From Candidatus Bathyarchaeota archaeon (lineage in GTDB: Archaea > Thermoproteota > Bathyarchaeia > 40CM-2-53-6 > RBG-13-38-9): 64,000 bases of DNA. Location of the stretch: contig CAWECG010000003.1 in NCBI GenBank assembly GCA_963807605.1, positions 64,001 to 128,000 of the forward strand, given 5' to 3'. A program made the position numbers and the translations under genes. Below are positions 5,480 to 22,789 of this stretch, piece after piece; the stretch's first letter is position 1; the number at the start of each line of letters is the position of its first letter. The notes under the pieces are model-generated. The model saw only the letters and a list, made by a program, of their open reading frames with translations, searched no databases and was not told the DNA's origin.

Positions 5480-5491
5480 CGCGCGCGCGCG
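5480..5491. repeat. TA-(CG)6 palindromic tract at the helicase truncation
   Basis: ttaCGCGCGCGCGCGatc; member of the dispersed (CG)n family also at 2880, 7915, 10157, 11024, 12355, 12690, 16991, 22673 and shorter copies. Confidence 0.95.
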
Positions 5492-7336
5492 ATCCGACGA
5501 ACTCGTGACTACATCAAGCGCAACTACCCAGACGCTACTGTGAACGGGAAGAAGGTAATCTTCCCCGAACGACGCTTGGAAAACACGAGCTACAAGCTCG
5601 GTTCAACATACAAAGGCATGTACAAGACAATATCCCACGCTTTGACTGAAGAGCTGACCATGGCGTACTACCGCCTCCTCGAATACAAGAAGGCCGAGAA
5701 GCTCAGCATGGAGGAGCAACTGGCGCTCGGACGGATGATTGCCCTTGAAGGCATATTCAGGACTATCATGCTCAAGAGGCTTGAAAGCAGCGTCGAAGCA
5801 TTCAGGAAGAGCGTTTCGAAGCACATCGATTTTCTGCACGCATTGGAGGAACATTTGAAGCAAGGCAAGCTCCTCACAAAAGAAGCATTCAATCGGTACC
5901 TGATGAGCGTCGACGAAGAACTGGAGGAGTATATCGAGACACTCTCCGATTTCAATCCTGACGAATACAACCTTGACAAACTGTTCAACGACATCAACAA
6001 GGATCTCGCCGTTTTCACAGGAATCTTGTCCAAGGTCAAAGTCATCAGGCCGGAAGATGACGCCAAGCTGTTGGAGTTCAAAAGGAGGCTACACGAACTG
6101 GCCGCCAAGGGACAAGTAATCGTTTTCACATATTACGCTGATACGCTGGATTACATTCATGAACAAGTTTCAAAATCAGTTGATTTTGCTAATCTCAAAA
6201 TAGAGAAAATCTCCGGCGCAACCCCGCCGTCCAAACGGGAAGCTCTCGTTAATGATTTCCTCGCTAAGAAAATTGACGTTCTCATGAGCACTGATGTCCT
6301 CTCGGAAGGAATGAATCTGCAGTCTGCGCAGTTCGTCATTAATTACGACCTCCATTGGAATCCAACTCGTATGATTCAGAGAGCGGGAAGGATAGACAGA
6401 ATCGGATCGCCTTACAAGCAGATTTTCGTATACAACTTCTTTCCGGAAGACGAGCTCGAAGAACTTCTAAGGTTGGTGCAGATACTCCAAAACAAGATTA
6501 TCGATATCGATGAGTCCGTGGGCCTTGACCAGACCATCTTAGGAGAGACAATCCACCCCAAAGTCTTCGGCGTAATCAGGCGCATTTTGAAAAAAGATGC
6601 TACCATCCTCGAAGAACTGGAGACCAGCGCCTTCGGAGGCGGAGAAAAATTCTACCAGCCGCTGAAGGATTTCCAAAAACAACGGGTGATAGAGGAGCTG
6701 GATCAGATACCTTTCGGCATACACAGCGGACTTCAGAGCCAGAAATTACGTGCGATATTCTTCTATTACAAGTACGGACAAGATTCCCATTTCTGGTGCC
6801 TTGTCGACCCAGGGTCTGGAACCATCATCAGTCGGAACAAGAGCGAAATCGTTGATTATCTGGCTTGTCCGACCAATGAGCCTAGGGTCATACCCGACTT
6901 CTTCGAGGCCGTGTATGAAGCGAACAAGAAAGCTCTGGAAGACATACAGACTACTTACAAGAAAATGGAGCAGGTGCAGGGAGTAGATACGACTCTCGTG
7001 GATTACAGCAAGGAACAGAGCACGAAGTTCGTCAAGGACCTATTGAGAGAAATCGAACTTCAGCTTGAGGAATATCTTGATGAGTTTCCAGCAGAGAAGA
7101 ATCTTGAATCGAGATGGGAAGTAATAAGAACGAAGATGCTCGGCATCCCTCTTACCAAAAGGCGATTGCGTGACATCAGACGCATCTGGAGACATTATAA
7201 GAACGCGAAAGATTGGAAGAAGCTGATAGACGAACTCGATCAATTCTTGGCACAGAAGGGTCTACAACAAAGAGAGCCGATTGAGCCGTTCGACGCCGAA
7301 AGATTGAAGCTGGTAGCGATCGACTTCATATCCTGA
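5492..7336 (+). pseudogene. SNF2-like SF2 helicase, C-terminal half only (N-terminal ATPase lobe missing)
   Basis: Frame begins IRRTRDYIKRNYP right after the CG tract; motifs IV-VI present (IVFTYYADT, STDVLSEGMNLQ, NYDLHWNPTRMIQRAGRIDRIG); no Walker A or DExx. Confidence 0.85.
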
Positions 7337-7976: not shown

Positions 7977-8252
7977 CTAGCGTTCCTTCAGTTTGCGCTC
8001 AAGATTCTCAAGCCTTTTGGTGGCCTGCTCAAACTGTAGCAAAGTCAAGTCTACTGTCAGGATCATGATGCAGGTTTCTGCAGTGATTGTTGGCCTAAAC
8101 ACATTCATCCAAACCAGTGCTATAACTTCGAGGTTAAGGGAGGAAGTCATGCCAAAAAGACGAAGGTGGAAACCAAAGCGACTGTGGATCCTGCCGAGGT
8201 AGAAGACCCGCACATTGAGACAGAATAGATCTGCTAATGTGAGCGCACCCAT
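7977..8252 (-). CDS. Small chimeric ORF ending in an integrase-like coiled-coil tail
   Basis: C-terminus QFEQATKRLENLERKLKER matches the C-terminus of the recombinase at 21827 (KFEEATRRLEDLERKLTEK). Confidence 0.4.
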   Translation of the reverse strand: MGALTLADLFCLNVRVFYLGRIHSRFGFHLRLFGMTSSLNLEVIALVWMNVFRPTITAETCIMILTVDLTLLQFEQATKRLENLERKLKER

Positions 8253-9127
8253 TCCTCATATTTCCAGCGAGACTCGGCGAGGCTGGTCATCGGGGCCACG
8301 CTCCCACTGTTCAGCCCGCCTTTTTTTACGCGCTCGAAGAGTTTCATCGCCTTTTCAGGCTCAGCGTGACCGTGAATAAGCAAGGCCGGATTAGCTCTAT
8401 CAATTATGCCGCTGACAGTTTGAGCTTCAAGGTCCTTCCTGTTGCCGATATAGCTGCAGATCAATCCGGATGTAGCATTCAGACTATTAGGAACCGACAG
8501 GACCCGCATTGGATCCACACTCAGAATAAAATGGCTCCTGTCATAGACGAAGGTTTCCAAGGCTAGGATCTTGCTAAACCTGAATCGGGCAACCTCATGT
8601 GACTTTATTGGATTCCTAGCATCATAATGAGTAAAGTCTCTAATGTCAAAGTCTAAAGCATAGACGTGAAAACCACGCCGACCACTGAAGACAATCGCGA
8701 TCTTGGAATAGTAGTTTTCAATCTTCTCGCAGAGCTGAACCGTCATCTTCCGGCTGAGCTCAACACACTTACGGCAGACACCTTTGACGATTAGACAGTT
8801 ATGGAAATTCTGCCATCTCTGAATGACGTATGCGTCAATATCCACGGCATAGCTTCCACCAATTGGAACTGCATGTCGTGCCTTGTTTTTTCTGCCAACT
8901 CTCTCGGGGAAGAGCCAGTCAAGCACGGAAAAGTAGACATGGGAGGGAGCATATTTGACACAGTATTCTTTGAGTTCTCGCTGATTGATTCGGTTTTGAA
9001 ACTTGTTCAGCTTCACAAACTTGTGGTTTAAGATTTCAAGCCGGAAATGCTTCCTTGAATAGTTCCAGGGGAGTTTGCCCTCCAGAGGTGCAGCTTGATA
9101 GTAGGATTGGATCTCGTGGGGTCGCAT
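8234..9127 (-). CDS. Archaeo-eukaryotic primase, PriS-like catalytic subunit (element-borne)
   Basis: HVYFSV, YAVDIDA (DxD), Cys/His cluster HNC...VCRKC, IVFSGRRGFHVY, VDPMRVLSVPNSLN. Confidence 0.88.
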   Translation of the reverse strand: MRPHEIQSYYQAAPLEGKLPWNYSRKHFRLEILNHKFVKLNKFQNRINQRELKEYCVKYAPSHVYFSVLDWLFPERVGRKNKARHAVPIGGSYAVDIDAYVIQRWQNFHNCLIVKGVCRKCVELSRKMTVQLCEKIENYYSKIAIVFSGRRGFHVYALDFDIRDFTHYDARNPIKSHEVARFRFSKILALETFVYDRSHFILSVDPMRVLSVPNSLNATSGLICSYIGNRKDLEAQTVSGIIDRANPALLIHGHAEPEKAMKLFERVKKGGLNSGSVAPMTSLAESRWKYEEWVRSH

Positions 9128-9400
9128 TCCAGCTCAGACCATCAGGATCCTTCATAGGATGTGAAGCTGAGAGGAGCCTGAATGTTAAGAGAGAGTGTAA
9201 TAAAATTACAGAACTGCAGATTAGGCTTTAGGCTACAGATTCTCTCTAATCCATTTCTTCATACCCTCACTACGCGCGCCAAGGTAGAAGACGACTAACT
9301 AAGAGGTTCTGTTACTTCTGTGGGACATAGTTCTGACTGTTAACTGTCTGGACATGATATTTCCAACAGTGTTAAGAGTGCAAGGAGGTGACGGTACTGG

Positions 9401-9703
9401 ATGAGAAGAAGAGATTTGGTCGAGGAACAAATAGAAGCTGAAGTTCTTGAGGCGAAAAATGTCGGTTCAAATGTGGTCATGTTCACCTTAAGTGATGAAA
9501 CACGAATCAAAGCTACTGTTACAATTGCAACCGTACTCCGCTCGAAAGAACTTAATCCTGATGGAAGTCACAAGTATCATGCTAATGTGAATGTGAATTT
9601 GGAGTTTGTACAACCTGCTGGCAAGATTGTCAAAGTACCTCGCTCTATCTTTGGCCCACCTCAGCCTTCAGTGAAACCAAGTGATACTAGACTAGTGACA
9701 TGA
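9401..9703 (+). CDS. Hypothetical protein
   Basis: Strong GGAGGTGA Shine-Dalgarno upstream, 100 aa with plausible composition. Confidence 0.65.
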   Translation: MRRRDLVEEQIEAEVLEAKNVGSNVVMFTLSDETRIKATVTIATVLRSKELNPDGSHKYHANVNVNLEFVQPAGKIVKVPRSIFGPPQPSVKPSDTRLVT

Positions 9704-9902
9704 CGAATCAGAGTTTTTGAGTGCTAAACAACTACAGCTTTCTTCTTAGACTTTTCTGCTTTATACTCCCTCGCCCACTACGCGCGCGTAAAAGAGCCAC
9801 TAGGCTTGATAGTACTAAGAATAATGGTACTTGGGAGAGCTTTGATGGCTAATGCTGTAGATCAGATTGTTGTTTCGAATACTGCAGATGTATACTCTGG
9901 AT

Positions 9903-10152
9903 AGTATGAGTACTATGAGTATGATGAAGCCTATACTATGAATGCTTAAGCCTATACTATGAGTATGCTTGAAGCCTATGCTGAAGCCTCAAAGTATATG
10001 ATACTAGCCTTATCATCAAGCTTGCCGAAGCCTTCTGAAGCTTGCTGGCTATAGTGGTACATTTGTATACAGTTCTAGGGGATGCTAGAGAAGCATACTG
10101 GTAAGCTTAGTTAAGCTTAAGCAAGCCTATGATGACCTATGATGAGCCTATG
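9903..10152. repeat. Degenerate short tandem repeat built from AAGCCTATA/G and TACTATGAGTATG words
   Basis: AAGCCTATACTATGA at 9927 and 9948; TACTATGAGTATG at 9911 and 9955; four AAGCTT; CCTATGATGA repeated near 10126-10145. Confidence 0.8.
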
Positions 10153-10243
10153 CCAACGCGCGCGCGTAGCTATGCTTGATTCGTGAAAAGTTGGCTGACG
10201 AGCGCGGTTTCTTCCGTTCTAGCGACAAAGGTTAACAGGTTAC

Positions 10244-10411
10244 TCAAGGATATATTATGCGCAGAATCATCAGTTCCTCTAGAAGCAATGCCAGCCCTAT
10301 CACGAAGACTGCTACCGCAGCTATCGTAGTTCCCCTACTCTGGGTTCGTACCCCTATTATGACAGCCAAAACCAGGAGAGCTATTTCCATTATGAGGTTT
10401 GGAATTGACAT
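10244..10411 (-). CDS. 55-aa two-TM membrane protein (below ORF-track cutoff)
   Basis: MSIPNLIMEIALLVLAVIIGVRTQSRGTTIAAVAVFVIGLALLLEELMILRIIYP. Confidence 0.55.
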   Translation of the reverse strand: MSIPNLIMEIALLVLAVIIGVRTQSRGTTIAAVAVFVIGLALLLEELMILRIIYP

Positions 10412-10555
10412 GTGTTCTATGTGTGTTTGTCGGGCATGATAAGACTTGCTAAATTCTTATGCGCCAGAGAATTACGCGCGCTCGACTCTGCTTTGCGTCG
10501 TGCGAACGATGAAGGCGCGCGCGTCAGTGTATCTGTCTTTTGATCGCAGGGCATG

Positions 10556-10963
10556 TTACTTCTTATAGAGTGTTGAGAGCACGTATCCATATGAGATGCT
10601 TATGAAGAATCCTACGTAGATGAGCCCAACCGCTATACTGGTAGCCATGTCAACGAGGCCGACGAATGAACCGGCTGCGATGTTCATGACGAGCCAGATC
10701 ATCAGGCCGAAGTAGACGCCTTTCATGACGCCTTTCCCAGGAATCCCATCATAGAACCTTTGGTAGAACATGCTGAATATTGCGCCCCAGATTATTGTGA
10801 GGACGATCGCGCGCGCTAGAACAAAAGTTGAGGTTGAACCTGGAGCAGCTGTCATGAGCCCTGACGAAACGCCTATGATCGCAAAAATGACTCCTACTAT
10901 GCCACCGACAAGTCCTGCAATAGCACCCGCCGCAATAACGCTTTTCAAATACCCACCTCCCAT
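10556..10963 (-). CDS. Four-TM membrane protein
   Basis: Gly-rich hydrophobic helices, FYDGIPGKGVMKGVYFGLMIW. Confidence 0.7.
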   Translation of the reverse strand: MGGGYLKSVIAAGAIAGLVGGIVGVIFAIIGVSSGLMTAAPGSTSTFVLARAIVLTIIWGAIFSMFYQRFYDGIPGKGVMKGVYFGLMIWLVMNIAAGSFVGLVDMATSIAVGLIYVGFFISISYGYVLSTLYKK

Positions 10964-11071
10964 CTCGTGGATCGGTAAAAAAACCGTCAGAGCAAGAACG
11001 CGTCAAATAGATTTAACACTTGTCGCGCGCGCGTAGGATCCTGACGGCATAGCCCCAGCGGGAGACTCTTC

Positions 11072-11266
11072 ATGTTTGAGGTGTCAACTGCGCGGCGGGG
11101 AGACCGGCTGACTTTTCGCGAGGAGAAGAGGAAGGTTGAGCTTCTAGTCAAGATCTCCGCGAGGAAAGGAATAGATCTGTCAGACTATCTCAGAATGGCC
11201 CTGCGGGAAGCCTTGAGATCGGATCCCCTGGTGACGGAGGAGGAGAAGAAGGCACCCGGCCTCTAG
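11072..11266 (+). CDS. Ribbon-helix-helix (CopG-like) DNA-binding protein
   Basis: RLTFR...LLVKISARKGIDLSDYLRMALREAL. Confidence 0.6.
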   Translation: MFEVSTARRGDRLTFREEKRKVELLVKISARKGIDLSDYLRMALREALRSDPLVTEEEKKAPGL

Positions 11267-11345
11267 GCCATATCACAAGAGCGTAAGATTAGAAGAGAGC
11301 ACTGGCCGGTAAATTCGCGCGGGGGAGCGTTAAGGGATCAAAGCC

Positions 11346-11618
11346 TTAAGAGAAGACCTGGGAGCCAAACTTGCGCCGATGGAAGGGTGAGGTGCTTTTG
11401 TTCATCCACTCTGCATCCGATCCCGTATTTACTTCCATTAGACTCTCAATCTTGTAGAGGTAGTCCTTCTTGCTGCATGTAGATGTCTTGCCGCATCGAG
11501 GACACCTCTCTGGGATATTGACTAGTGGTGCAACTCTGAAGGTGTCGTAGTCCATCTCTATTGTTGCGAGGTGTGTACTACCGCATCCTGGAACCTTGCA
11601 TCTGACCATTAAAGGCAT
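11346..11618 (-). CDS. Small zinc-ribbon protein
   Basis: CKVPGC ... CPRCG. Confidence 0.55.
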   Translation of the reverse strand: MPLMVRCKVPGCGSTHLATIEMDYDTFRVAPLVNIPERCPRCGKTSTCSKKDYLYKIESLMEVNTGSDAEWMNKSTSPFHRRKFGSQVFS

Positions 11619-11784
11619 AACTAGGATCTAATACTGCATGGTGTTGCTTCTGGCAGTGTTGCAATATCTGGTGTGTGCTCAATCTCAAAGTTTATGTCAC
11701 TTTAGTCTTCAATGTCCTGTTACGCCAGCCTACGCGGGGGCTAGACCATACAGGGGCCACTTTCAAGGATAGAGGAAAAGCAGT

Positions 11785-12336
11785 ATGAAGACTGGGCCTG
11801 CGGTAGAAACATCCGAACCGGCCAAACTCAACATTCAGGTCTCAACTGAGTCAAAGGCGAAGATGTTCTTTGGGCTGATACCTACGAAGGAAATCGTCAG
11901 AGGTCAGAAATTCAAGATTAAGCTCACAATTCGAAATATGTCAAGGACGAAGCCCTTCAAGGGGAGATATCATATTGATATCGTATATCCAACAAGAGAG
12001 AGAAATCGCATTAAACATGAGGCATTGCAACCATGGGAACCGGGGAGCGAATTGACTGAAGAGATTGAATTTGAGGCGCTCTCTGAAGGATATGCTCTAA
12101 TTGAGTTCTATCCAGAGAGAGGTGAATCCATCGAGATTGTAGATGATGCTGGCAATACTATCGAGCATGGGCCCGCGTCTGCGCATGAACCGCCTGCGCT
12201 TGGGATCTTTCATGTAACAACTAATCGAGACATCTACGCCTTCTATGCAGTTGTGATTAGCCTTTTTGCACTCTTGATAATTGCGGCTGAGAAGGTCGTC
12301 TCTTTACTGAATTTCTTCCTTCGTCGGCAGCCCTAG
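11785..12336 (+). CDS. Hypothetical beta-rich protein with a C-terminal TM helix
   Basis: 183 aa, IYAFYAVVISLFALLIIAA anchor. Confidence 0.65.
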   Translation: MKTGPAVETSEPAKLNIQVSTESKAKMFFGLIPTKEIVRGQKFKIKLTIRNMSRTKPFKGRYHIDIVYPTRERNRIKHEALQPWEPGSELTEEIEFEALSEGYALIEFYPERGESIEIVDDAGNTIEHGPASAHEPPALGIFHVTTNRDIYAFYAVVISLFALLIIAAEKVVSLLNFFLRRQP

Positions 12337-12889
12337 TTCAAGCCCATCTTTGAGCGCGCGCGCGTAAGCGTAAGATCAAAAGAAAAGCAGCGAACGTACC
12401 GTTCGCTGGGTATGGGAAAACAGGGCTACTGTTCCTCATGGAATCTGCGTCTACGGGCCCAGCCTTACAGCAATGGTATGCTTGCAGGATCCGGTTCTGT
12501 CAAGGCTTCGGGTGATATTTCTCCCTATCAAGTTGGGGAGATTCCTTGTGGGGATTCTGGTGGCTTGTTTCGAATTAGTTGCAGAACCTCGTCTTCAGTG
12601 ATAGGCTCATTTTTTTTGAAGCCAACTTTTACCATCTCGAATCTGATTGCATCAAATTTCTGACTTGTACCTTGAGCCAGTATTTTCTACGCGCGCGCGT
12701 CGCTTAGGCTTCTTCTTCGCCAACTTGGGCTTGCAACTGCCTGACTGTGAGAGCCCAATGCTAAACGAAAAGTTCTGAAGATCAAGGCGGCCTGGCAAAA
12801 GAAGACACCGGATCGAGTCGGGCGGCACCCTAGAAAGTGCTTTATCGTCAGATCAAAGATTACAAACATGATGCCTAGGGTGTTGCCCA

Positions 12890-14683
12890 ATGAAGAAGCG
12901 CCCCAAAAGCAATGATAAACCCTACAAACTAAAAGTAGGGGATGACCCGGTAGAGAGTTTCGAGTCTGACCTCCTTGATTTCAAAAACCCAGCCATAGAA
13001 CTTGCAAAGGACCTTTACGAGATCTCCAAGACCTCTGGAGTTTGCTGCGGCGTGGTCGGTTCGTGGGGAAGCGGTAAATCAAGCTTCATGAAATTGATGG
13101 ACGAACATGTGCGAAAGGAGTATACTGGAAAGAAAGGATACACGGCATGGTTCACAGCATGGGATCCCGGCGGAGCACATGATCTAGGAGACGCGATGCT
13201 ACACAGCCTTTTCCGCGAACTTGCCGAAGGAAACAAAGAGCTATCGAACCCTTTCAAAGAACTTGAAAACGCTCTCGGAATGCGCCGAAGTGCCAAGCAG
13301 ACAGTCGGTCGAATCTTACAGAATGTCTCGGGAGCATTACCTGAGGGAGGACGCGTTGCAGCAAAAGCCACTGGTAGCTTGCTTTGCGAATTAGATACAT
13401 CAAGGACGATCAGAGAATCTTTTGTCAGCCTTATGGAGTGGCTTAGGAAAGAAGACTGCACGGTCTTCTACTTTATTGACGACATAGATCGTGCTTCAGG
13501 AGACCAAATCAGAGATCTCTTGTCTGAGCTTAAGTTGTATGTAAGCCATTCCGGGATCATTGCTATCTTGGGATATGACACAGACTACGTAGTTAATGCA
13601 TTAAGAGTTCCAGGAATACTGCCCCAGGGCACAGACCCGGAGAAGTATCTAGAGAAGATAGTGACCATCAGAAGAAACGTTCCAACGGCAAGCTTCGTGA
13701 AAATGAGGGAGTACGCAGCCCTTCTTACACAAACGATGACCAATCTCATCAAAGATTCCGGAGTGATTGCTTATCTAGCAGCCCTTCTATCTTCTGGTAA
13801 CCCTCGGCAATTGAAGCGCCTTATTCTCAGGTTCACCAACCTTATTGACTCTGAGTTCGTGAAACAGACTAATCTGTCCTCACGGGACCTTCGATACGTA
13901 ATACTGAGTGCGCTTCTAATCACAGCAGCTGCCGAGATGGGCCTCCTAGCGGATGACGGCATTAGAGATTCCCTACAAACCTCTCAAGGACTCGAAGCCA
14001 TGCTTCAAGAATACATTAAAAACCACCCATCGAAGACAAAGGAAGTAGAACTTTTCAAAGAAGCAATGATGAAGATCCCGGGACTCGCAAGTGGGCTTAT
14101 AGGAGAGCTAAGGTTGCATCAATATCCGGGATCTGCACAATTATGGGTTCCTGAAGGGTTGGAAAAACGCGGACCACCATTTGACTGGAGACATGTGATA
14201 ATCCCAATTATTTCTAGTGCTGCTGAACATGGATTCAAGATACCGCCAAGTATCGCAGACTCCTCGGAAGATATTACTGTTCCACCCTCCGCAACTAACA
14301 TCGTCGAAGGAAGCCGATTGGCAAACTATCTTACTGCTGCCTACGCATATTTACAAGGAGAGACGGGTAATGTTTGTCTACTAACTTGGAATCAATTCAA
14401 TATGTTCGTTCAGGTTTTCGATTCGAGCCGTGGCAGTCCCTTTAGTATCTTCGGCGATTATGCCAATCGATCTGCGCTCCGTACCTCAGAGAAAGGCTTT
14501 GCAGCTTGGATAATCGATGAAGGGGGTCAAATAGATAGTTCTGAATGGACACGCATCGCCCAAGTCGCTCAAGAATCCTCAAAAGGTCTGAAGAATCCGC
14601 TGGTATTCTTGTACACACCCGCCTCCAAGATCGAGGCATTGGTGTCATTTCTTTTGAAAGTCTCGCAAGGGCAGCCTGACTAA
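12890..14683 (+). CDS. KAP-family P-loop NTPase
   Basis: GVVGSWGSGKSS (Walker A), WFTAW, FIDDIDR (Walker B), YLEKIV, NPRQLKR. Confidence 0.9.
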   Translation: MKKRPKSNDKPYKLKVGDDPVESFESDLLDFKNPAIELAKDLYEISKTSGVCCGVVGSWGSGKSSFMKLMDEHVRKEYTGKKGYTAWFTAWDPGGAHDLGDAMLHSLFRELAEGNKELSNPFKELENALGMRRSAKQTVGRILQNVSGALPEGGRVAAKATGSLLCELDTSRTIRESFVSLMEWLRKEDCTVFYFIDDIDRASGDQIRDLLSELKLYVSHSGIIAILGYDTDYVVNALRVPGILPQGTDPEKYLEKIVTIRRNVPTASFVKMREYAALLTQTMTNLIKDSGVIAYLAALLSSGNPRQLKRLILRFTNLIDSEFVKQTNLSSRDLRYVILSALLITAAAEMGLLADDGIRDSLQTSQGLEAMLQEYIKNHPSKTKEVELFKEAMMKIPGLASGLIGELRLHQYPGSAQLWVPEGLEKRGPPFDWRHVIIPIISSAAEHGFKIPPSIADSSEDITVPPSATNIVEGSRLANYLTAAYAYLQGETGNVCLLTWNQFNMFVQVFDSSRGSPFSIFGDYANRSALRTSEKGFAAWIIDEGGQIDSSEWTRIAQVAQESSKGLKNPLVFLYTPASKIEALVSFLLKVSQGQPD

Positions 14684-16664: not shown

Positions 16665-17000
16665 CACTAAAGAAATAGAAGACCCCCCCCCAAGGCAGCC
16701 CCTATCCGTGAAGCCATCAAGAAGATCAAAACTCTCCTCGAGAACGACCCATACAGTCAACCAATCCACTAGGGGATCCCTTGAAAACACCATGCATCAT
16801 CCAGAAAGAACCTTAACGTTTTCTTCATGGATTCGTAATGATGACTTACAACTACTCTTGATCGTCTTGTTAGTGCACACCATTTCCAGCACACATTTCG
16901 CAGTAGGGGCAGTAAGAATACCATTCATCGCAAAGAACACCAGTAGAAAGACAGTTTGGTCTGGGTCGAGACGCAGCGGAAGATACCTCTCGCGCGCGCG

Positions 17001-17428: not shown

Positions 17429-19618
17429 TTGTCTAAGACAGATACTTCTGTCGGAAACCTTGTCGAATGGATGAGGAGTGGGGAACTACGCCTCCTAGAG
17501 ATACAGCGCCGGTATGTATGGCCCGCAACACGTGTGAGAGACCTCCTCGATTCGTTGTACCGCCAATACCCGACTGGCACCATCCTCGTCTGGGAGACTG
17601 ACCAACCGAAGCCAAGTAAGAATCTGGCCGTTTCACAAGAAGAGAGTCCCTTCAAGGGACGAAGGCTGCTCTTAGATGGCCAACAGCGACTCACCTCCCT
17701 CTACGCGGTCATACTCGGCCAACCCGTGACAGTCCGAGGACGCAAAAAACCAATTGAGATTCTGTTTAACCTCGAGCATCCGGAGAAGTTTGAAGGAGAA
17801 GTGGAAGAGATTGAATACGACACAAGGACTGACGACTCAGATTCTGACGACTCAACTGAGGAAGAAAACACCCCCAACGTCTAGCAGCGACTGAAGCAGA
17901 GGACATTCGTTGTAGAAAGCAAGGCTCTACTCGCGGATCCGCACTGGGTCAAGGTAACAGACATCTTCACGAAATCTGATGCACAAATCCTCAAACCATT
18001 AGTGAAAAGCCTCGACGATCCAAACTATGAAAAATACTCTGAGCGATTACAAAAAGTCCGCAAGATCAAGGATTATCCATATGTAGTGCAAGTTCTAGAC
18101 AAAAGTCTTGACTATCCAGAAGTCACTGAGATTTTTGTCCGCGTTAACTCCCTTGGCATGAAGCTGCGCGGATCAGATCTAGCACTTGCCCAGATAACGT
18201 CACGTTGGCAAGACTCGTTGCGACTTTTCGAAGATTTCCAAGAGGAATGTGAGGAACGAGGCCTCACGATCGATCTCGGAGTTCTCGTCAGAGCAATGGT
18301 CGTCTTTGCCACAGATCATAGCAGATTTCTAACAGTCAATACGATTCTCATTAATAAGTTGAAGTCAGCATGGGAAACCACCAAAGATGGCGTTCAGTTC
18401 GCCGCAAACTTCCTTCTAGCCAACGCTGCGATAGAAGACATCAGCCTACTTTCGTCTCCCATCTTCATCATAACACTAGCTTACGCTTTGACCAAGAGAG
18501 GCAAGCAACTGACCGGTGAGGAAGAGCGCGCACTGAAGCAATGGCTCTACATCGCAAGTGCTCGTGGCCACTATTCAGGCTCTTCTGAGTCGACTCTGGA
18601 CAGCGATCTAGCGGCAATTCTTAAGGGCGGTGCATTAGAGCTGCTTAACATTCGCAATCAACTCGGCGGAATGCCTATCTTGCCAAGTGATCTAGCCGGC
18701 CGTGGAAGAAATAGTCTCCTCTTCCCCATGACGTACCTCGCGTTGAAGGCACTTGGTGCGAAAGACTGGAGCACCCAACTTGGACTTAGCCTCGCAAACC
18801 AAGGACATCAACATGCAATCCAACATCATCATATTTTTCCAAAAGCCCAACTCAGGAAGGCGGGTTACGAAAGAAGCGAGATCAATGAAATCGCCAACAT
18901 GGCCTTTATCTCGGCTGGAACGAACCGAGAACTGTCAACCACCTCTGCAGAGGAATATCTCGCAGATATCCTGAAACGCCTTGGCAAGCAGTCCTTGGAG
19001 AGTCACTGTATTCCAACAGAGCCGAGCCTTTGGAAAATAGAATCATTCCGTGAGTTTCTCAAATACAGACGCGCCGCTCTTGCAAAGGCAGTCAACGATT
19101 TCATCCTACAACAAGGACCTGAATCAGAAGCAGTTGACATAGAGAAGCTAGTAGATCTAGGCGAAAACGAGAACGTCGAGTTCAAGACTTCGGCACGCTG
19201 GGACTACCGTGCAAACATGGTCAACAAGGCTTTGGAGAGGGTTATTGTGAAATCTCTGGCTGGGTTTCTGAACGGCAAGGGCGGAGTACTCATTCTTGGT
19301 GTGGACGACAGTGGTGCATTGGTTGGGTTGGAGAAGGATTATTCCACATTGTCCAGCAGACCTAACCGAGATGGATACTATCAGTTTCTGGTAAACCTGT
19401 ATTCGTCTCTGGGACGAGACATAAGCAGCAATATCTCCGTGGTATTTCACAACTTGAAGAATCGCGAAATATGTGCGCTGAAGATAGGCCACAGCTCGAG
19501 GCCTGTCTGGGTTGAGGATGGGATACTGAGGAGATTTTACCTTAGAAGCGAAAACACCACACAGGAACTCAATGCTCAGGAAGCAACAGAGTACATCAGA
19601 ATTAAGTGGCCCAAGTGA
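17429..19618 (+). pseudogene. GmrSD-type DUF262 + HNH-like nuclease fused to an AlbA_2/Schlafen domain, interrupted by one in-frame TAG (17882-17884)
   Basis: IQRRYVW, LLDGQQRLT, FVRVNSLG, QHHHIFPK...NEIANM, GENENVEFK...GFLNGKGGVLILGVDD; the 151-aa and 538-aa ORFs are in frame, with 39 open codons between them. Confidence 0.85.
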
Positions 19619-19977: not shown

Positions 19978-20784
19978 ATAAAAAACATAAGATTAGGGCC
20001 AAACGAACTCAAGCTAATCTTTACACTAGAAAGAGACCAAAAGACAGTATTTACACCGTTGACGGCCAAGGAAATACTTGGTACATCTGACAAAGCAGTC
20101 TACGGGGTATTAGAGGGACTCAAAAAGAAGAAAAGGATTAAACAAATACGTGGCGGCCTCTATCTGCTTGCCCCAGCTAAATCAGGGATCGAAGCTGAAT
20201 GGACTGAGCACATATTTACAATCCTTCCCAGCCTCTTGAAGACATCTTATTATGTCGGGTTCTGGTCCGCGCTCTCTTACTGGGGAATGACAGAACAGAT
20301 CCCAGAAGTAACCTATGTCGTGGTAACAAGACAGAGAAGAAAACTGCAGTTTGACGGCAGAGTTGTCCAGTTTATTACCTACCCTGAGACTCGCTTCTTC
20401 GGTTACGAGAAGGGAACATTGGGGAATACGGAGTTTAACATATCCGATCGTGAAAAAACGATAGTTGATTCCCTAGCACATCCAGAATATGTTGGTGGCA
20501 TATCCGAAGCAGCTAAGGCCATCTGGATGAATAGAGATGAAATCAAGATCGCCCAACTGATTGACTATTCACAAAGAATGAATATCAAAGCCGTGCGTAT
20601 GCGATTGGGTTACTTGTTGAAAATACTCGGCTTTGGTGAAGAATCATACAATTCACTGCTGCCTAATGGTCCTACAGGTGCACCGTGGCTGGATCCCTCG
20701 AGCGAAAAAAGGCAGATAAAATATTCGTCTAGGTGGGGCCTTCGCTTGAATGTACCAGAAAAAGTAATCCTTCATTGGAAGTGA
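19978..20784 (+). CDS. Type IV toxin-antitoxin antitoxin, AbiEi family
   Basis: IRGGLY, YYVGFWSALSYWGMTEQIP, ISDREKTIVD...PEYVGG; frame extends upstream of the TTG at 20059 to an ATA at 19978. Confidence 0.85.
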   Translation: MKNIRLGPNELKLIFTLERDQKTVFTPLTAKEILGTSDKAVYGVLEGLKKKKRIKQIRGGLYLLAPAKSGIEAEWTEHIFTILPSLLKTSYYVGFWSALSYWGMTEQIPEVTYVVVTRQRRKLQFDGRVVQFITYPETRFFGYEKGTLGNTEFNISDREKTIVDSLAHPEYVGGISEAAKAIWMNRDEIKIAQLIDYSQRMNIKAVRMRLGYLLKILGFGEESYNSLLPNGPTGAPWLDPSSEKRQIKYSSRWGLRLNVPEKVILHWK

Positions 20785-20788
20785 TTAG

Positions 20789-21739
20789 ATGGAGTTAGAT
20801 GGACTGAAAAGATATGCAGCGTCAAAACAGATAGCTTTGGGCACAGTCGAAAAGGACTGCGTGCTGTCTGTAGTGCTTTCACAGCTTTCTAAGAGCCAGT
20901 TTGCAAACCAGCTAATCTTCAAAGGCGGCACAGCCATAAAGAAGGCCTATTTTCCAGACGCAAGATTCTCAGTAGATCTTGACTTCAACTTCTTCGACAT
21001 TTCAGGTGATGCGCTTGTTAAGGAAATCTCGGAGCTTTTCAGCGGAAAAACCATCCTAGAGACAGTATTTGAAGATATCAAGAATGTGGAGATGGGGAAT
21101 GATAAAGTGCTGTTACGCTTGAGGTACAAAGCACAACTTGACCATCTTGACAGTGTAAGACTCGACCTCACCTTCAGGGAACCAGTAATGCTCGAACCAA
21201 GATGGTGGACGCCAAAAGATGATTATGATGTGACAAGAAGAATGACTTGTGAACATCTGACCTTAGGAGACATCAGGCCTATAACGAACGTTGAAGAACG
21301 ACTTTACGGGTGTAAACTCGGCAGAATGAGCGGAACAGCAAGAAACCGCAGAGCATGTCTCGACTGCAAAATGCAGAGCCCGAGAAGGAAGGACCCACTC
21401 CCCTCAGCCTTCAAGGCAATGTCTCTAGAAGAAATGCTATCAGAGAAAGTCAGAGCATGCCTAATGAGAGGTAGGCCGAGGGACCTCTACGACATTTGGT
21501 TCCTTCAGTCAAAAGGCATCATCTTAGACCGTCAGATGACCATCGATAAGCTTCACCTCTACCAAGAATTTCATCAGAGAATACCCAATATCAGGGAAAT
21601 AAGAGAAAACTTGGTAGTTATTGAACCAGAATGGGACAGGAATCTTGCGGCCCTAGCTCCTTCAAAGACATATCCGAAGTTTCAGGAGGCTCTCGAGAGC
21701 CTGATTCTCTTTTTAGAAAAAACAGGTTGGGAAACATGA
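20789..21739 (+). CDS. Type IV toxin-antitoxin toxin, AbiEii nucleotidyltransferase
   Basis: VEKD, LIFKGGTAIKK, RFSVDLDF, EEMLSEKVRA...RPRDLYD. Confidence 0.92.
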   Translation: MELDGLKRYAASKQIALGTVEKDCVLSVVLSQLSKSQFANQLIFKGGTAIKKAYFPDARFSVDLDFNFFDISGDALVKEISELFSGKTILETVFEDIKNVEMGNDKVLLRLRYKAQLDHLDSVRLDLTFREPVMLEPRWWTPKDDYDVTRRMTCEHLTLGDIRPITNVEERLYGCKLGRMSGTARNRRACLDCKMQSPRRKDPLPSAFKAMSLEEMLSEKVRACLMRGRPRDLYDIWFLQSKGIILDRQMTIDKLHLYQEFHQRIPNIREIRENLVVIEPEWDRNLAALAPSKTYPKFQEALESLILFLEKTGWET

Positions 21740-21826: not shown

Positions 21827-22672
21827 CTATGTTTTCTCTGTTAATTTTCGCTCGAGATCCTCCAGTCTTCTTGTTGCTTCCTCAAACTTTAGTGTGAGCT
21901 TCTTTACAGCCTCGTCGCGTCTCTGCATCTCTTCCTGGAGCTGGGAGACCTCAGCTGATCCCGAGATTATGTTAAGATACTTCTCAGCTATCCTGTACTG
22001 AGTCAGCGTATAGTTCTTGTCTTTGAAGAAATTGTCATACTGATTCGGATCTGTAACATGACCCATGAAGAATTCAACAGCCTCCAGATCTAACCCCTCC
22101 TTCTTGCCTTGAAGATGAAGTAGGGTTCTCGCTGTATCCCTGAACTCGTGCAGGTTGAAGCCGTGTCGGTTACCAGTTGAGCCGCCACGCTTAATGTATT
22201 TCAGCCTTTCAAGAAGCCGCAGATGCCTCATGCGTATACCATGTTTGCGTACAGCCTTCCCATCAGCATCCAGGTAGATGGGTTCACCGTCTCGAGGCCA
22301 GCCCCTCTTCCTCTCAAAATACTCCTTCCAGGCAGCTAGAGCATCGTAGCCGATGAAGGTGTGACATTCCCGCTTGCCCTTGTTCTCCTTTCGGCCAGCA
22401 TAACTAAACATGAAGGGCTCCTCAACTCCCTTCTCCTTCAAGTGTTTGACGAGAACTCCAGCGCAAGTCGTGTTGAAGATCATGAATCTCTCAAGATCCA
22501 TGATTCCCATCCATAAAGTCAGGTAGAAGGCTTTCCGACCAACATCCACATTATCAATTAAACTCTTAACAACCTCAACACTCAACCTGCCAGAACTCGG
22601 CGACTTATCAGGATTAATCCGAAAATCATCAGCAGGCAGGGAAACACGGTTCTTCTTGAAGAAACCCCTAAT
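21827..22672 (-). pseudogene. Tyrosine recombinase/integrase lacking its N-terminus
   Basis: AIRGFFKKNRVSLP, FNLHEFRD (HxxR), FFMGH, NQYD catalytic Tyr region; no in-frame ATG/GTG/TTG between 22585 and the pncB stop. Confidence 0.8.
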
Positions 22673-22789
22673 CGCGCGCGCGTACGGGCTATTGATTCGC
22701 GATCGTGTATTCGAGTATTGGCTCAGATTGAGAAGCGCTTCTAGGTAGCCAGATCTGTGATCGAGTAGAAGCTGCTGAACCCTGACGAC

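Follow-up and report, generated by a model that had tools for sequence, protein, structure and literature searches.

Alternating CG tracts in the accessory DNA of a Bathyarchaeota archaeon as candidate fillers of end joining

The joining of DNA ends by LigD polymerase with Ku, by TdT, by Pol mu or by Pol theta leaves filler DNA (N-nucleotides), which is random or copied from the flanks. This paper is concerned with short alternating tracts of C and G in a genome of Candidatus Bathyarchaeota archaeon from soil, an uncultured organism (G000, 2.65 Mb, with the contigs C1 and C3), which were noticed in a stretch of 64,000 nucleotides (positions 64,001 to 128,000 of contig CAWECG010000003.1; C3:64001-128000), referred to as the window. 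Ten such tracts cut the region 9271-12700 of the window into small pieces, and a preliminary description took this region for an integron-like array of captured genes. Like the known fillers, the tracts bring extra bases that are not derived from a donor, and variable end loss, occasional short duplications and any orientation of the joined pieces are likewise found; unlike them, the tracts share one self-complementary grammar, and neither Ku nor LigD polymerase nor PolX tracks their occurrence.

Integrons and clusters of attC sites lacking an integron integrase (CALINs), also those of archaea, are recognized by an IntI with an extra domain, by attC hairpins and by cassettes lying mostly in one orientation (10.1101/2022.02.06.479319). 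The likeness to the region studied here is superficial, consisting of small open reading frames (ORFs), palindromic separators and a nearby tyrosine recombinase; in contrast, the tracts have neither IntI nor an attC fold, occur with genes of mixed orientation and also inside genes, are absent from uncut homologs and are spread over the whole genome. For the archaeal primase PriSL, two GC pairs are enough to anneal strands; the enzyme also performs terminal transfer and was shown to repair breaks in vivo (PMC12019639). In Saccharolobus islandicus, the microhomology-mediated end joining by PriSL is independent of Ku, involves terminal transfer and annealing on 2-4 GC pairs, and yields insertions that favour C beside G (PMC12019639). 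In these respects it is similar to what is seen for the tracts, but here unrelated pieces of DNA are connected by fixed fillers, and these number in the hundreds. The cyanobacterial element HIP1, GCGATCGC, has one fixed length, and its origin was modelled as methylation-linked mismatch repair (PMC4390886). Both HIP1 and the tracts are over-represented palindromes of 8 bp, patchy by lineage and hit by mobile repeats; however, the tracts are 7-15 nt long, avoid genes and replace DNA at joints. Finally, IS1272 and IS1182-like insertion sequences (IS) use palindromic targets, as do two IS families of the genome studied here, and IS1272 replaces the inverted repeat without duplication (PMC5678879), whereas insertion of the two families apparently gives a 4-bp duplication at the centre of a tract; they use the tracts and do not make them.

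At the joints of the genome under study, sequence that is found in neither donor is present, with variable end loss. On balance, we consider the tracts to be fillers, A(GC)4T or A(CG)4-5T, that are written while two DNA ends are joined. The "array" is best read as the remains of many successive deletions and fusions in dispensable DNA, and not as a cassette store. The ten tracts, which carry no strand, and the gene that is interrupted by one of them are as follows.

9273-9279: CG tract, 7 nt; located upstream of the gene for the accessory primase at a distance of 146 bp, whereas the G001 orthologue has a tract at 69 bp
9781-9788: CG tract, 8 nt, A(CG)4T
10157-10166: CG tract, 10 nt, A(CG)5T
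10475-10481: CG tract, 7 nt
10515-10523: CG tract, 9 nt; start of the similarity to the C1 paralog, which has GCGC only
10556-10963, minus strand: gene for a 135-aa membrane protein with four transmembrane segments (4-TM), 87% identical to the paralog in C1:409096-409605, with an in-frame scar inside
10808-10816: CG tract, 9 nt, within the gene for the membrane protein; 7 bases in place of 4, one codon gained; tract-free in the paralog and the outgroup
11024-11033: CG tract, 10 nt; the similarity to the C1 paralog stops here, and the paralog continues tract-free
11316-11321: CG run, 6 nt; the weakest of the ten, may be due to chance
12354-12364: CG tract, 11 nt, hybrid type A(GC)5GT
12690-12699: CG tract, 10 nt, A(CG)5T; precedes the KAP NTPase block

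The segment 10521-11024 is 90% identical to C1:409096-409605, and the copy in C1 is free of tracts at both ends and in the middle. The reading frame of the membrane protein gene is still open after the insertion at 10808. Since the outgroup protein has the length of the paralog at this position, the tract at 10808 was identified as the derived state. Homologs of the gene are cut at differing points, at codon 22 in locus L284 and at codon 50 here, while L096 and the paralog are uncut. In a related contig in run X1, the alignment stops at 10808. The gene had been described as one of the units bounded by tracts; it exists at the position given above, but it is not enclosed, being interrupted by a tract.

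These data bear directly on the integron-like reading, in which a tyrosine recombinase or a Cas1-like integrase inserts cassettes at a palindrome of 10-12 bp and thereby duplicates the palindrome. In its favour, several small and seemingly whole ORFs lie singly between tracts, the tracts are clustered in islands, and tyrosine recombinases are present in the genome. However, duplication of a target cannot produce a tract within a collinear gene, and the reusable cassette sites postulated earlier are contradicted by the 10808 tract, the flanks of which form one collinear gene in the paralog, and by the differing cut points. The paralog is collinear and has no tract at the positions of 10515, 10808 and 11024, an outcome of the kind that the preliminary description had named as refuting its reading. 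The best match to the IntI profile TIGR02249 in the genome reached 34 bits, with a cut-off of 265, and the recombinase of the window has no integrase match and is truncated at a tract. No consistent fold was identified around the ten tracts (z -2.4 to +2.1), with one pair of core sites at chance level. The 30-nt flanks of the ten tracts share no common sequence (mean likeness 26%), inverted repeats in tract flanks did not exceed chance, and the two tracts bounding one piece are alike no more often than by chance (96 vs 90 +/- 7). ORFs of the region, none of which could be assigned to a family with confidence, lie on both strands; genes are cut at 10808, 16991 and 22673; and the tracts occur genome-wide, far from any single integrase. 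The integron-like reading is thus largely refuted, and we regard it as very improbable. In this respect, the earlier statement that the region is not a classical attC integron was borne out by the missing IntI, the missing attC-like fold, the mixed orientation and the variable ends. As a practical consequence, arrays like 9271-12700 should not receive an integron annotation.

When the genome was compared with itself, repeated segments were found to stop often exactly at a tract, which agrees with the earlier view of the tracts as joints between DNA pieces of different origin. For 51 tract ends outside IS with a near-identical paralog flank, the paralog continues tract-free in 44 pairs; in the other seven, both members hold the tract and diverge beyond it. 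Among the 44, the donor has no base in common with the tract in 27 cases and 1-3 bases, the maximum, in 17, so that the microhomology is mostly 0-1 bp. Immediately beyond the tract comes a T in 39/44; in 14 cases this T stands where the donor has another base, and the reverse was never seen. This one-way outer T implies that the inserted unit is A(GC)nT or A(CG)nT. In collinear pairs, stretches of 6, about 20, 46, 252 or 1422 bp have given way to a tract, as have the 4 bases at 10808, and duplications of 7-9 bp flank four tracts, with about 0.1 expected. The pattern is repeated in G107, a genome of another family, in which 23 of the 27 pairs have a tract-free paralog. About 8 of the 23 are decayed copies, and one collinear replacement involved 15 nt. 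Ends of homology have a tract within 10 bp in 42/244 cases in G000 (3.9 expected; 10/36 at an identity of at least 97%) and in 14/30 cases in G107 (1.0 expected); tracts are therefore strongly enriched at such ends, yet they are present at a minority of them (17-47%).

A different origin of the same joints would be ordinary microhomology joining at CG or GC seeds that were lengthened by replication slippage, with GC runs being fragile in addition and no dedicated filler synthesis being involved. The 1-3 shared bases in the 17 donors, tract lengths that differ in steps of one and two, and the majority of homology ends being tract-free are consistent with this proposal. On the other hand, the 27 donors with zero shared bases and the extra outer T are left unexplained, the run lengths in G000 peak at 8 nt (127 runs of 7 nt, 198 of 8 nt) unlike a slippage decay curve, the about 7000 GCGC sites of the genome do not expand, and other dinucleotide runs are not comparably enriched, with the exception of CA in one repeat family. 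An origin by slippage is therefore quite unlikely.

Three further tracts of the window, again without strand, are found where genes or pieces were joined or lost.

2880-2889: (CG)5 tract; a related strain has 156 other letters here
16991-17000: (CG)5 tract; two unrelated pieces joined, an HD-domain gene being cut just ahead of the HD motif
22673-22682: (CG)5 tract; the N-terminal third of a tyrosine recombinase gene is lost here

Only two public runs contain part of the window, in both cases as contigs of relatives. The strain that differs at 2880 also carries a CG insertion of 10 nt behind 2909, where the window has none. The flanks of the 16991 tract correspond to separate tract-free loci in genome G001, in which both homologs continue. 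The tyrosine recombinase (21827-22585) lacks the first third of its paralogs of 378-394 aa, the similarity stopping at the 22673 tract.

The tracts of the region are real, as the preliminary description had held: the ten alternating runs within 9273-12699 have lengths of 6-11 nt, and the two strands of the window together contain 57 copies of CGCGCGC, compared to 2.8 +/- 2.1 in shuffled sequences. An assembly artefact is contradicted by runs of the same kind in long-read assemblies and in short-read metagenome-assembled genomes (MAGs), and by identical positions in contigs from different samples. The pieces between the tracts measure 501, 368, 308, 33, 284, 207, 282, 1032 and 325 bp, so that the size of 0.3-1 kb reported earlier does not hold for all of them (range 33-1032 bp). 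The sequence said to be shared by the 9273 and 9781 copies was verified as an identity of 12 nt, but it extends only 3 letters beyond the TA-(CG)n consensus, which is at chance level since there are 45 pairs of tracts.

The whole genome contains about 320 tracts of at least 8 nt. The most over-represented 8-mer is GCGCGCGC (298 vs 17.5 expected), and AGCGCGCGCT was counted 106 times with 1.4 expected. The tracts reach a length of 15 nt, in the case of C3:1139707, which is flanked by a duplication of 7 bp. The runs are concentrated in accessory islands: 272 of the 320 tracts are found in non-ORF sequence, which accounts for 23.5% of the genome, and 3 lie inside genes conserved with G107, which make up 22%. 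A quarter of the tracts are hybrids that start with G on one side and with C on the other. Old tracts decay by point mutation, mostly C>T and G>A, as expected for unconstrained sequence. In G107, 432 tracts were identified, among them compound fillers of up to 28 nt in which TA and GC units follow one another in varied order; the reverse complement of such a string obeys the same grammar. In this genome, AGCTAGCT occurs 212 times (38 expected). In loci L098 and L104 and in G107, all from Bathyarchaeia, intergenic (AGCT)n or (TAGC)n runs were also seen, alone or fused to (GC)n, a few of which end at homology breaks. Across 201 genomes of the class Bathyarchaeia, the count of WGCGCGCGCW is patchy, with 166, 149, 144, 117, 89 and 79 at the top and 0-5 in most genomes, including several of 2.5-3 Mb; many complete genomes have zero. 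Viral contigs with the 14-nt palindrome are mostly GC-rich and hence uninformative. No tRNA gene was identified in the window, and no Rfam match at 7.8-23 kb of it.

The two IS families are related to each other (DDE_Tnp_1 and DUF772, 41% identical), and seven full copies of each are present in G000, all in GC runs. All copies of family B are read through one TGA or lack a near ATG. The two families, which insert almost only into GC tracts, are represented by these loci.

L043:537-1583 (C1:359514-360652): IS copy
L044 (C1:531279-532400): IS copy

The copies sit in the middle of a tract, with an inferred duplication of 4 bp, and such a location is also seen in relatives; none lies within 9271-12700. 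On this basis, the tracts could be regarded as footprints of mobile elements or recombinases, in which pieces ending in (GC)n insert nearly at random and collapse by recombination between their ends, leaving one tract, and the tracts are reused as crossovers. This proposal would be in line with the GC-run location of all IS copies, with the seven paralog pairs sharing a tract, which indicate that tracts are sometimes reused, and with the types of neighbouring tracts, which are slightly more alike than random (71 vs 58 +/- 6). However, the GC flanks differ between near-identical IS copies, which implies that the flanks come from the target and that the IS use the tracts. The transposase was not found in the tract-rich genomes G003, G004, G007, G010 and G013, and the tract-poor G012 has 11 matches, with the reservation that MAGs lose IS copies. 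Furthermore, GCGC is missing from the site in uncut alleles, a fixed element end cannot yield (TA|GC)n fillers of varied order, and no multi-copy element with such ends emerged from the self-comparison. The two IS families land in tracts and do not explain them, and an origin of the tracts as footprints is unlikely.

Synthesis at the joint is favoured over a fixed element end and over slippage by the length peak at 8, the hybrid tracts and the (TA|GC)n strings of G107. The features of filler end joining in the broad sense are present, namely bases absent from both donors and either variable loss (4-1422 bp) or a duplication of 7-9 bp. In the mechanism proposed for such fillers, a broken 3' end would be trimmed or A-tailed, and a polymerase capable of terminal transfer and of annealing over 2 bp would build a self-complementary GC or CG tail by repeated slipping and copying. 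Tails annealed over about 8 bp could then be ligated in either orientation, and since any two self-complementary tails pair, any two ends would be joinable. The (TA|GC)n grammar of G107 is what would be expected from a tail copying itself. Core genes would be free of tracts because most scars there are lethal, while the scar at 10808 survived in frame. Later, the tracts would decay by point mutation and become landing sites for the two IS families. More tentatively, many Bathyarchaeia might possess a Ku-independent end joining in which (GC)n or (TA|GC)n tails written by a polymerase act as universal sticky ends, allowing the fusion of broken or incoming DNA in any orientation and building mosaic accessory genomes, with IS having evolved to home on the scars as safe landing sites.

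Several points weigh against the fillers being written at end joining. No enzyme was identified as the writer, and the screens by presence and absence were negative for seven candidate families. The insertions made by PriSL in Saccharolobus comprise 1-2 bp (PMC12019639), whereas the fillers here have 7-15 nt, with a stereotyped palindrome of 8-10 bp; moreover, PriS is universal and the tract load is patchy, so that PriSL alone cannot explain the patchiness. Most homology ends are tract-free, and tract joining is thus one route among others. The paralogs (88-99% identical) can only stand in for the true donor, the direction is proven for gene-internal cases only, and the strain comparison at 2880 and 2909 involves a single contig.

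In the screens for the writer, the presence of a gene was compared with tract counts; they are based on MAGs, and related genomes are not independent, so that a negative outcome lowers the probability of a candidate rather than excluding it. Ku and LigD polymerase are both encoded in G000 and present in the tract-poor family f2, but Ku was found in 0/15 members of the family of G000, many of them tract-rich, and LigD polymerase in 1/15, as a partial gene. At L041:9619-12232 (C1:589.6-592.2 kb), the genes for LigD polymerase and Ku and an ORF like an ATP-dependent ligase (215 aa, possibly partial) adjoin, and a tract at C1:592274 bounds them. This locus was probably acquired, since no other searched member of the family has Ku. 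PolX is present in 62/201 genomes, many with 0-5 tracts, and is missing from tract-rich G001, G003, G007 and G113. The PolX of G000 (C1:345080-346909) is 70% identical to that of G107, while genes shared by these genomes are usually 40-55% identical, which suggests transfer. The LigD phosphoesterase occurs in 145/201 genomes, the tract-free G005 among them. A small accessory primase (AEP) near nth is present in tract-free G005 and G011 and was not found in G003, G004 and G010. PolY was not found in G107, the number of PolB genes showed no pattern with tract load, and G000 has no reverse transcriptase. Among the genes shared by G000 and G107 (665 best-hit pairs), no unexpected polymerase was noticed among the roughly 380 entries that were inspected manually.

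Beside the array, an additional candidate is encoded.

8234-9127, minus strand: accessory PriS-like primase (AEP) gene; a role as writer is not supported

This AEP was identified in 9/201 genomes, five tract-rich and four tract-poor, often as fragments, and most tract-rich genomes lack it; its loci are often rich in tracts. It belongs to a family of stand-alone PriS-like primases of 260-300 aa with about 130 homologs, mostly from Bathyarchaeia, which have no PriL partner and variable neighbours and are often broken. Because no patchy repair gene that was screened tracks the load, the replicative primase PriSL or another near-universal enzyme is predicted to be the most likely writer. In G000, PriS was identified above the cut-off at C3:1004710 with a PriL-like gene adjoining, which is uninformative since both are universal.

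On this reading, the process would be a kind of end joining with filler, and the evidence points to an undescribed route of DNA mending in a very abundant archaeal group. In the open-access literature, no relevant paper on such CG tracts in archaea was found. New here are the outgroup-polarised in-frame scar in the array, the one-way addition of T, the (TA|GC)n grammar and the negative outcome of screening the obvious enzymes across the class. The tracts bear on the repair of breaks, and on the uptake of non-homologous DNA, by archaea that lack Ku. If fillers are indeed written at the joints, their stereotyped and self-complementary form would amount to a repair signature unreported for any prokaryote in the papers searched, each tract would date a break, so that the history of deletions and gene capture could be mapped from sequence in uncultured lineages, and a polymerase making universal sticky ends would be useful as a reagent. 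If the tracts instead are footprints or products of slippage, their value falls to that of an indicator of plastic genomes and of a new kind of target for IS.

The ORFs listed for the array in the preliminary description exist. Together with the other pieces between the tracts, they comprise the following.

9401-9703, plus strand: 100-aa ORF, no family; weak look-alikes among small archaeal hypothetical proteins (fairly high score, a lead only)
9789-10156, no strand: one piece of a dispersed low-complexity repeat family, with copies in C1:134296-134770 and C1:511495-511646
10244-10411, minus strand: 55-aa hydrophobic ORF, no family
11072-11266, plus strand: 64-aa ribbon-helix-helix-like ORF; weak match to the ORF56 plasmid copy-control family, E 0.003, below the cut-off
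11346-11618, minus strand: 90-aa CxxC zinc-ribbon-like ORF; paralog C3:451333-451521, 57% over 63 aa
11785-12336, plus strand: 183-aa ORF with a C-terminal hydrophobic anchor, no family, no close relative found
12365-12689, no strand: gene fragment; 12492-12567 is 84% like C3:442646-442722

For the 100-aa ORF and the 183-aa ORF, pattern scans gave no relatives. Of the two copies of the repeat at 9789-10156, C1:134296-134770 has matching ends without a tract, and C1:511495-511646 is cut by tracts of its own at other positions. A second repeat family in G000 (for example C1:137856-137975, C3:39707 and C1:520645) is like the 3' half of a tRNA, with the T-loop-like GGTTCAAAT followed by CTCACCA; its members, absent from G107, often form short arrays and have behind them tails of (CA)n, (GTC)n or (GGT)n that reach 116 nt. 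Elsewhere in the window, an ORF of 598 aa at 5480-7336, the C-terminal part of a helicase, directly follows a (CG)6 tract at 5480 and resembles the second half of a larger gene of the SNF2 type. Genes of the defence type are represented in the island by a KAP NTPase at 12890-14683, with 87% DNA identity to G001, by GmrSD at 17429-19618, which is split into two ORFs and has a Schlafen/AlbA domain, and by an AbiEi-AbiEii pair at 20059-21739.

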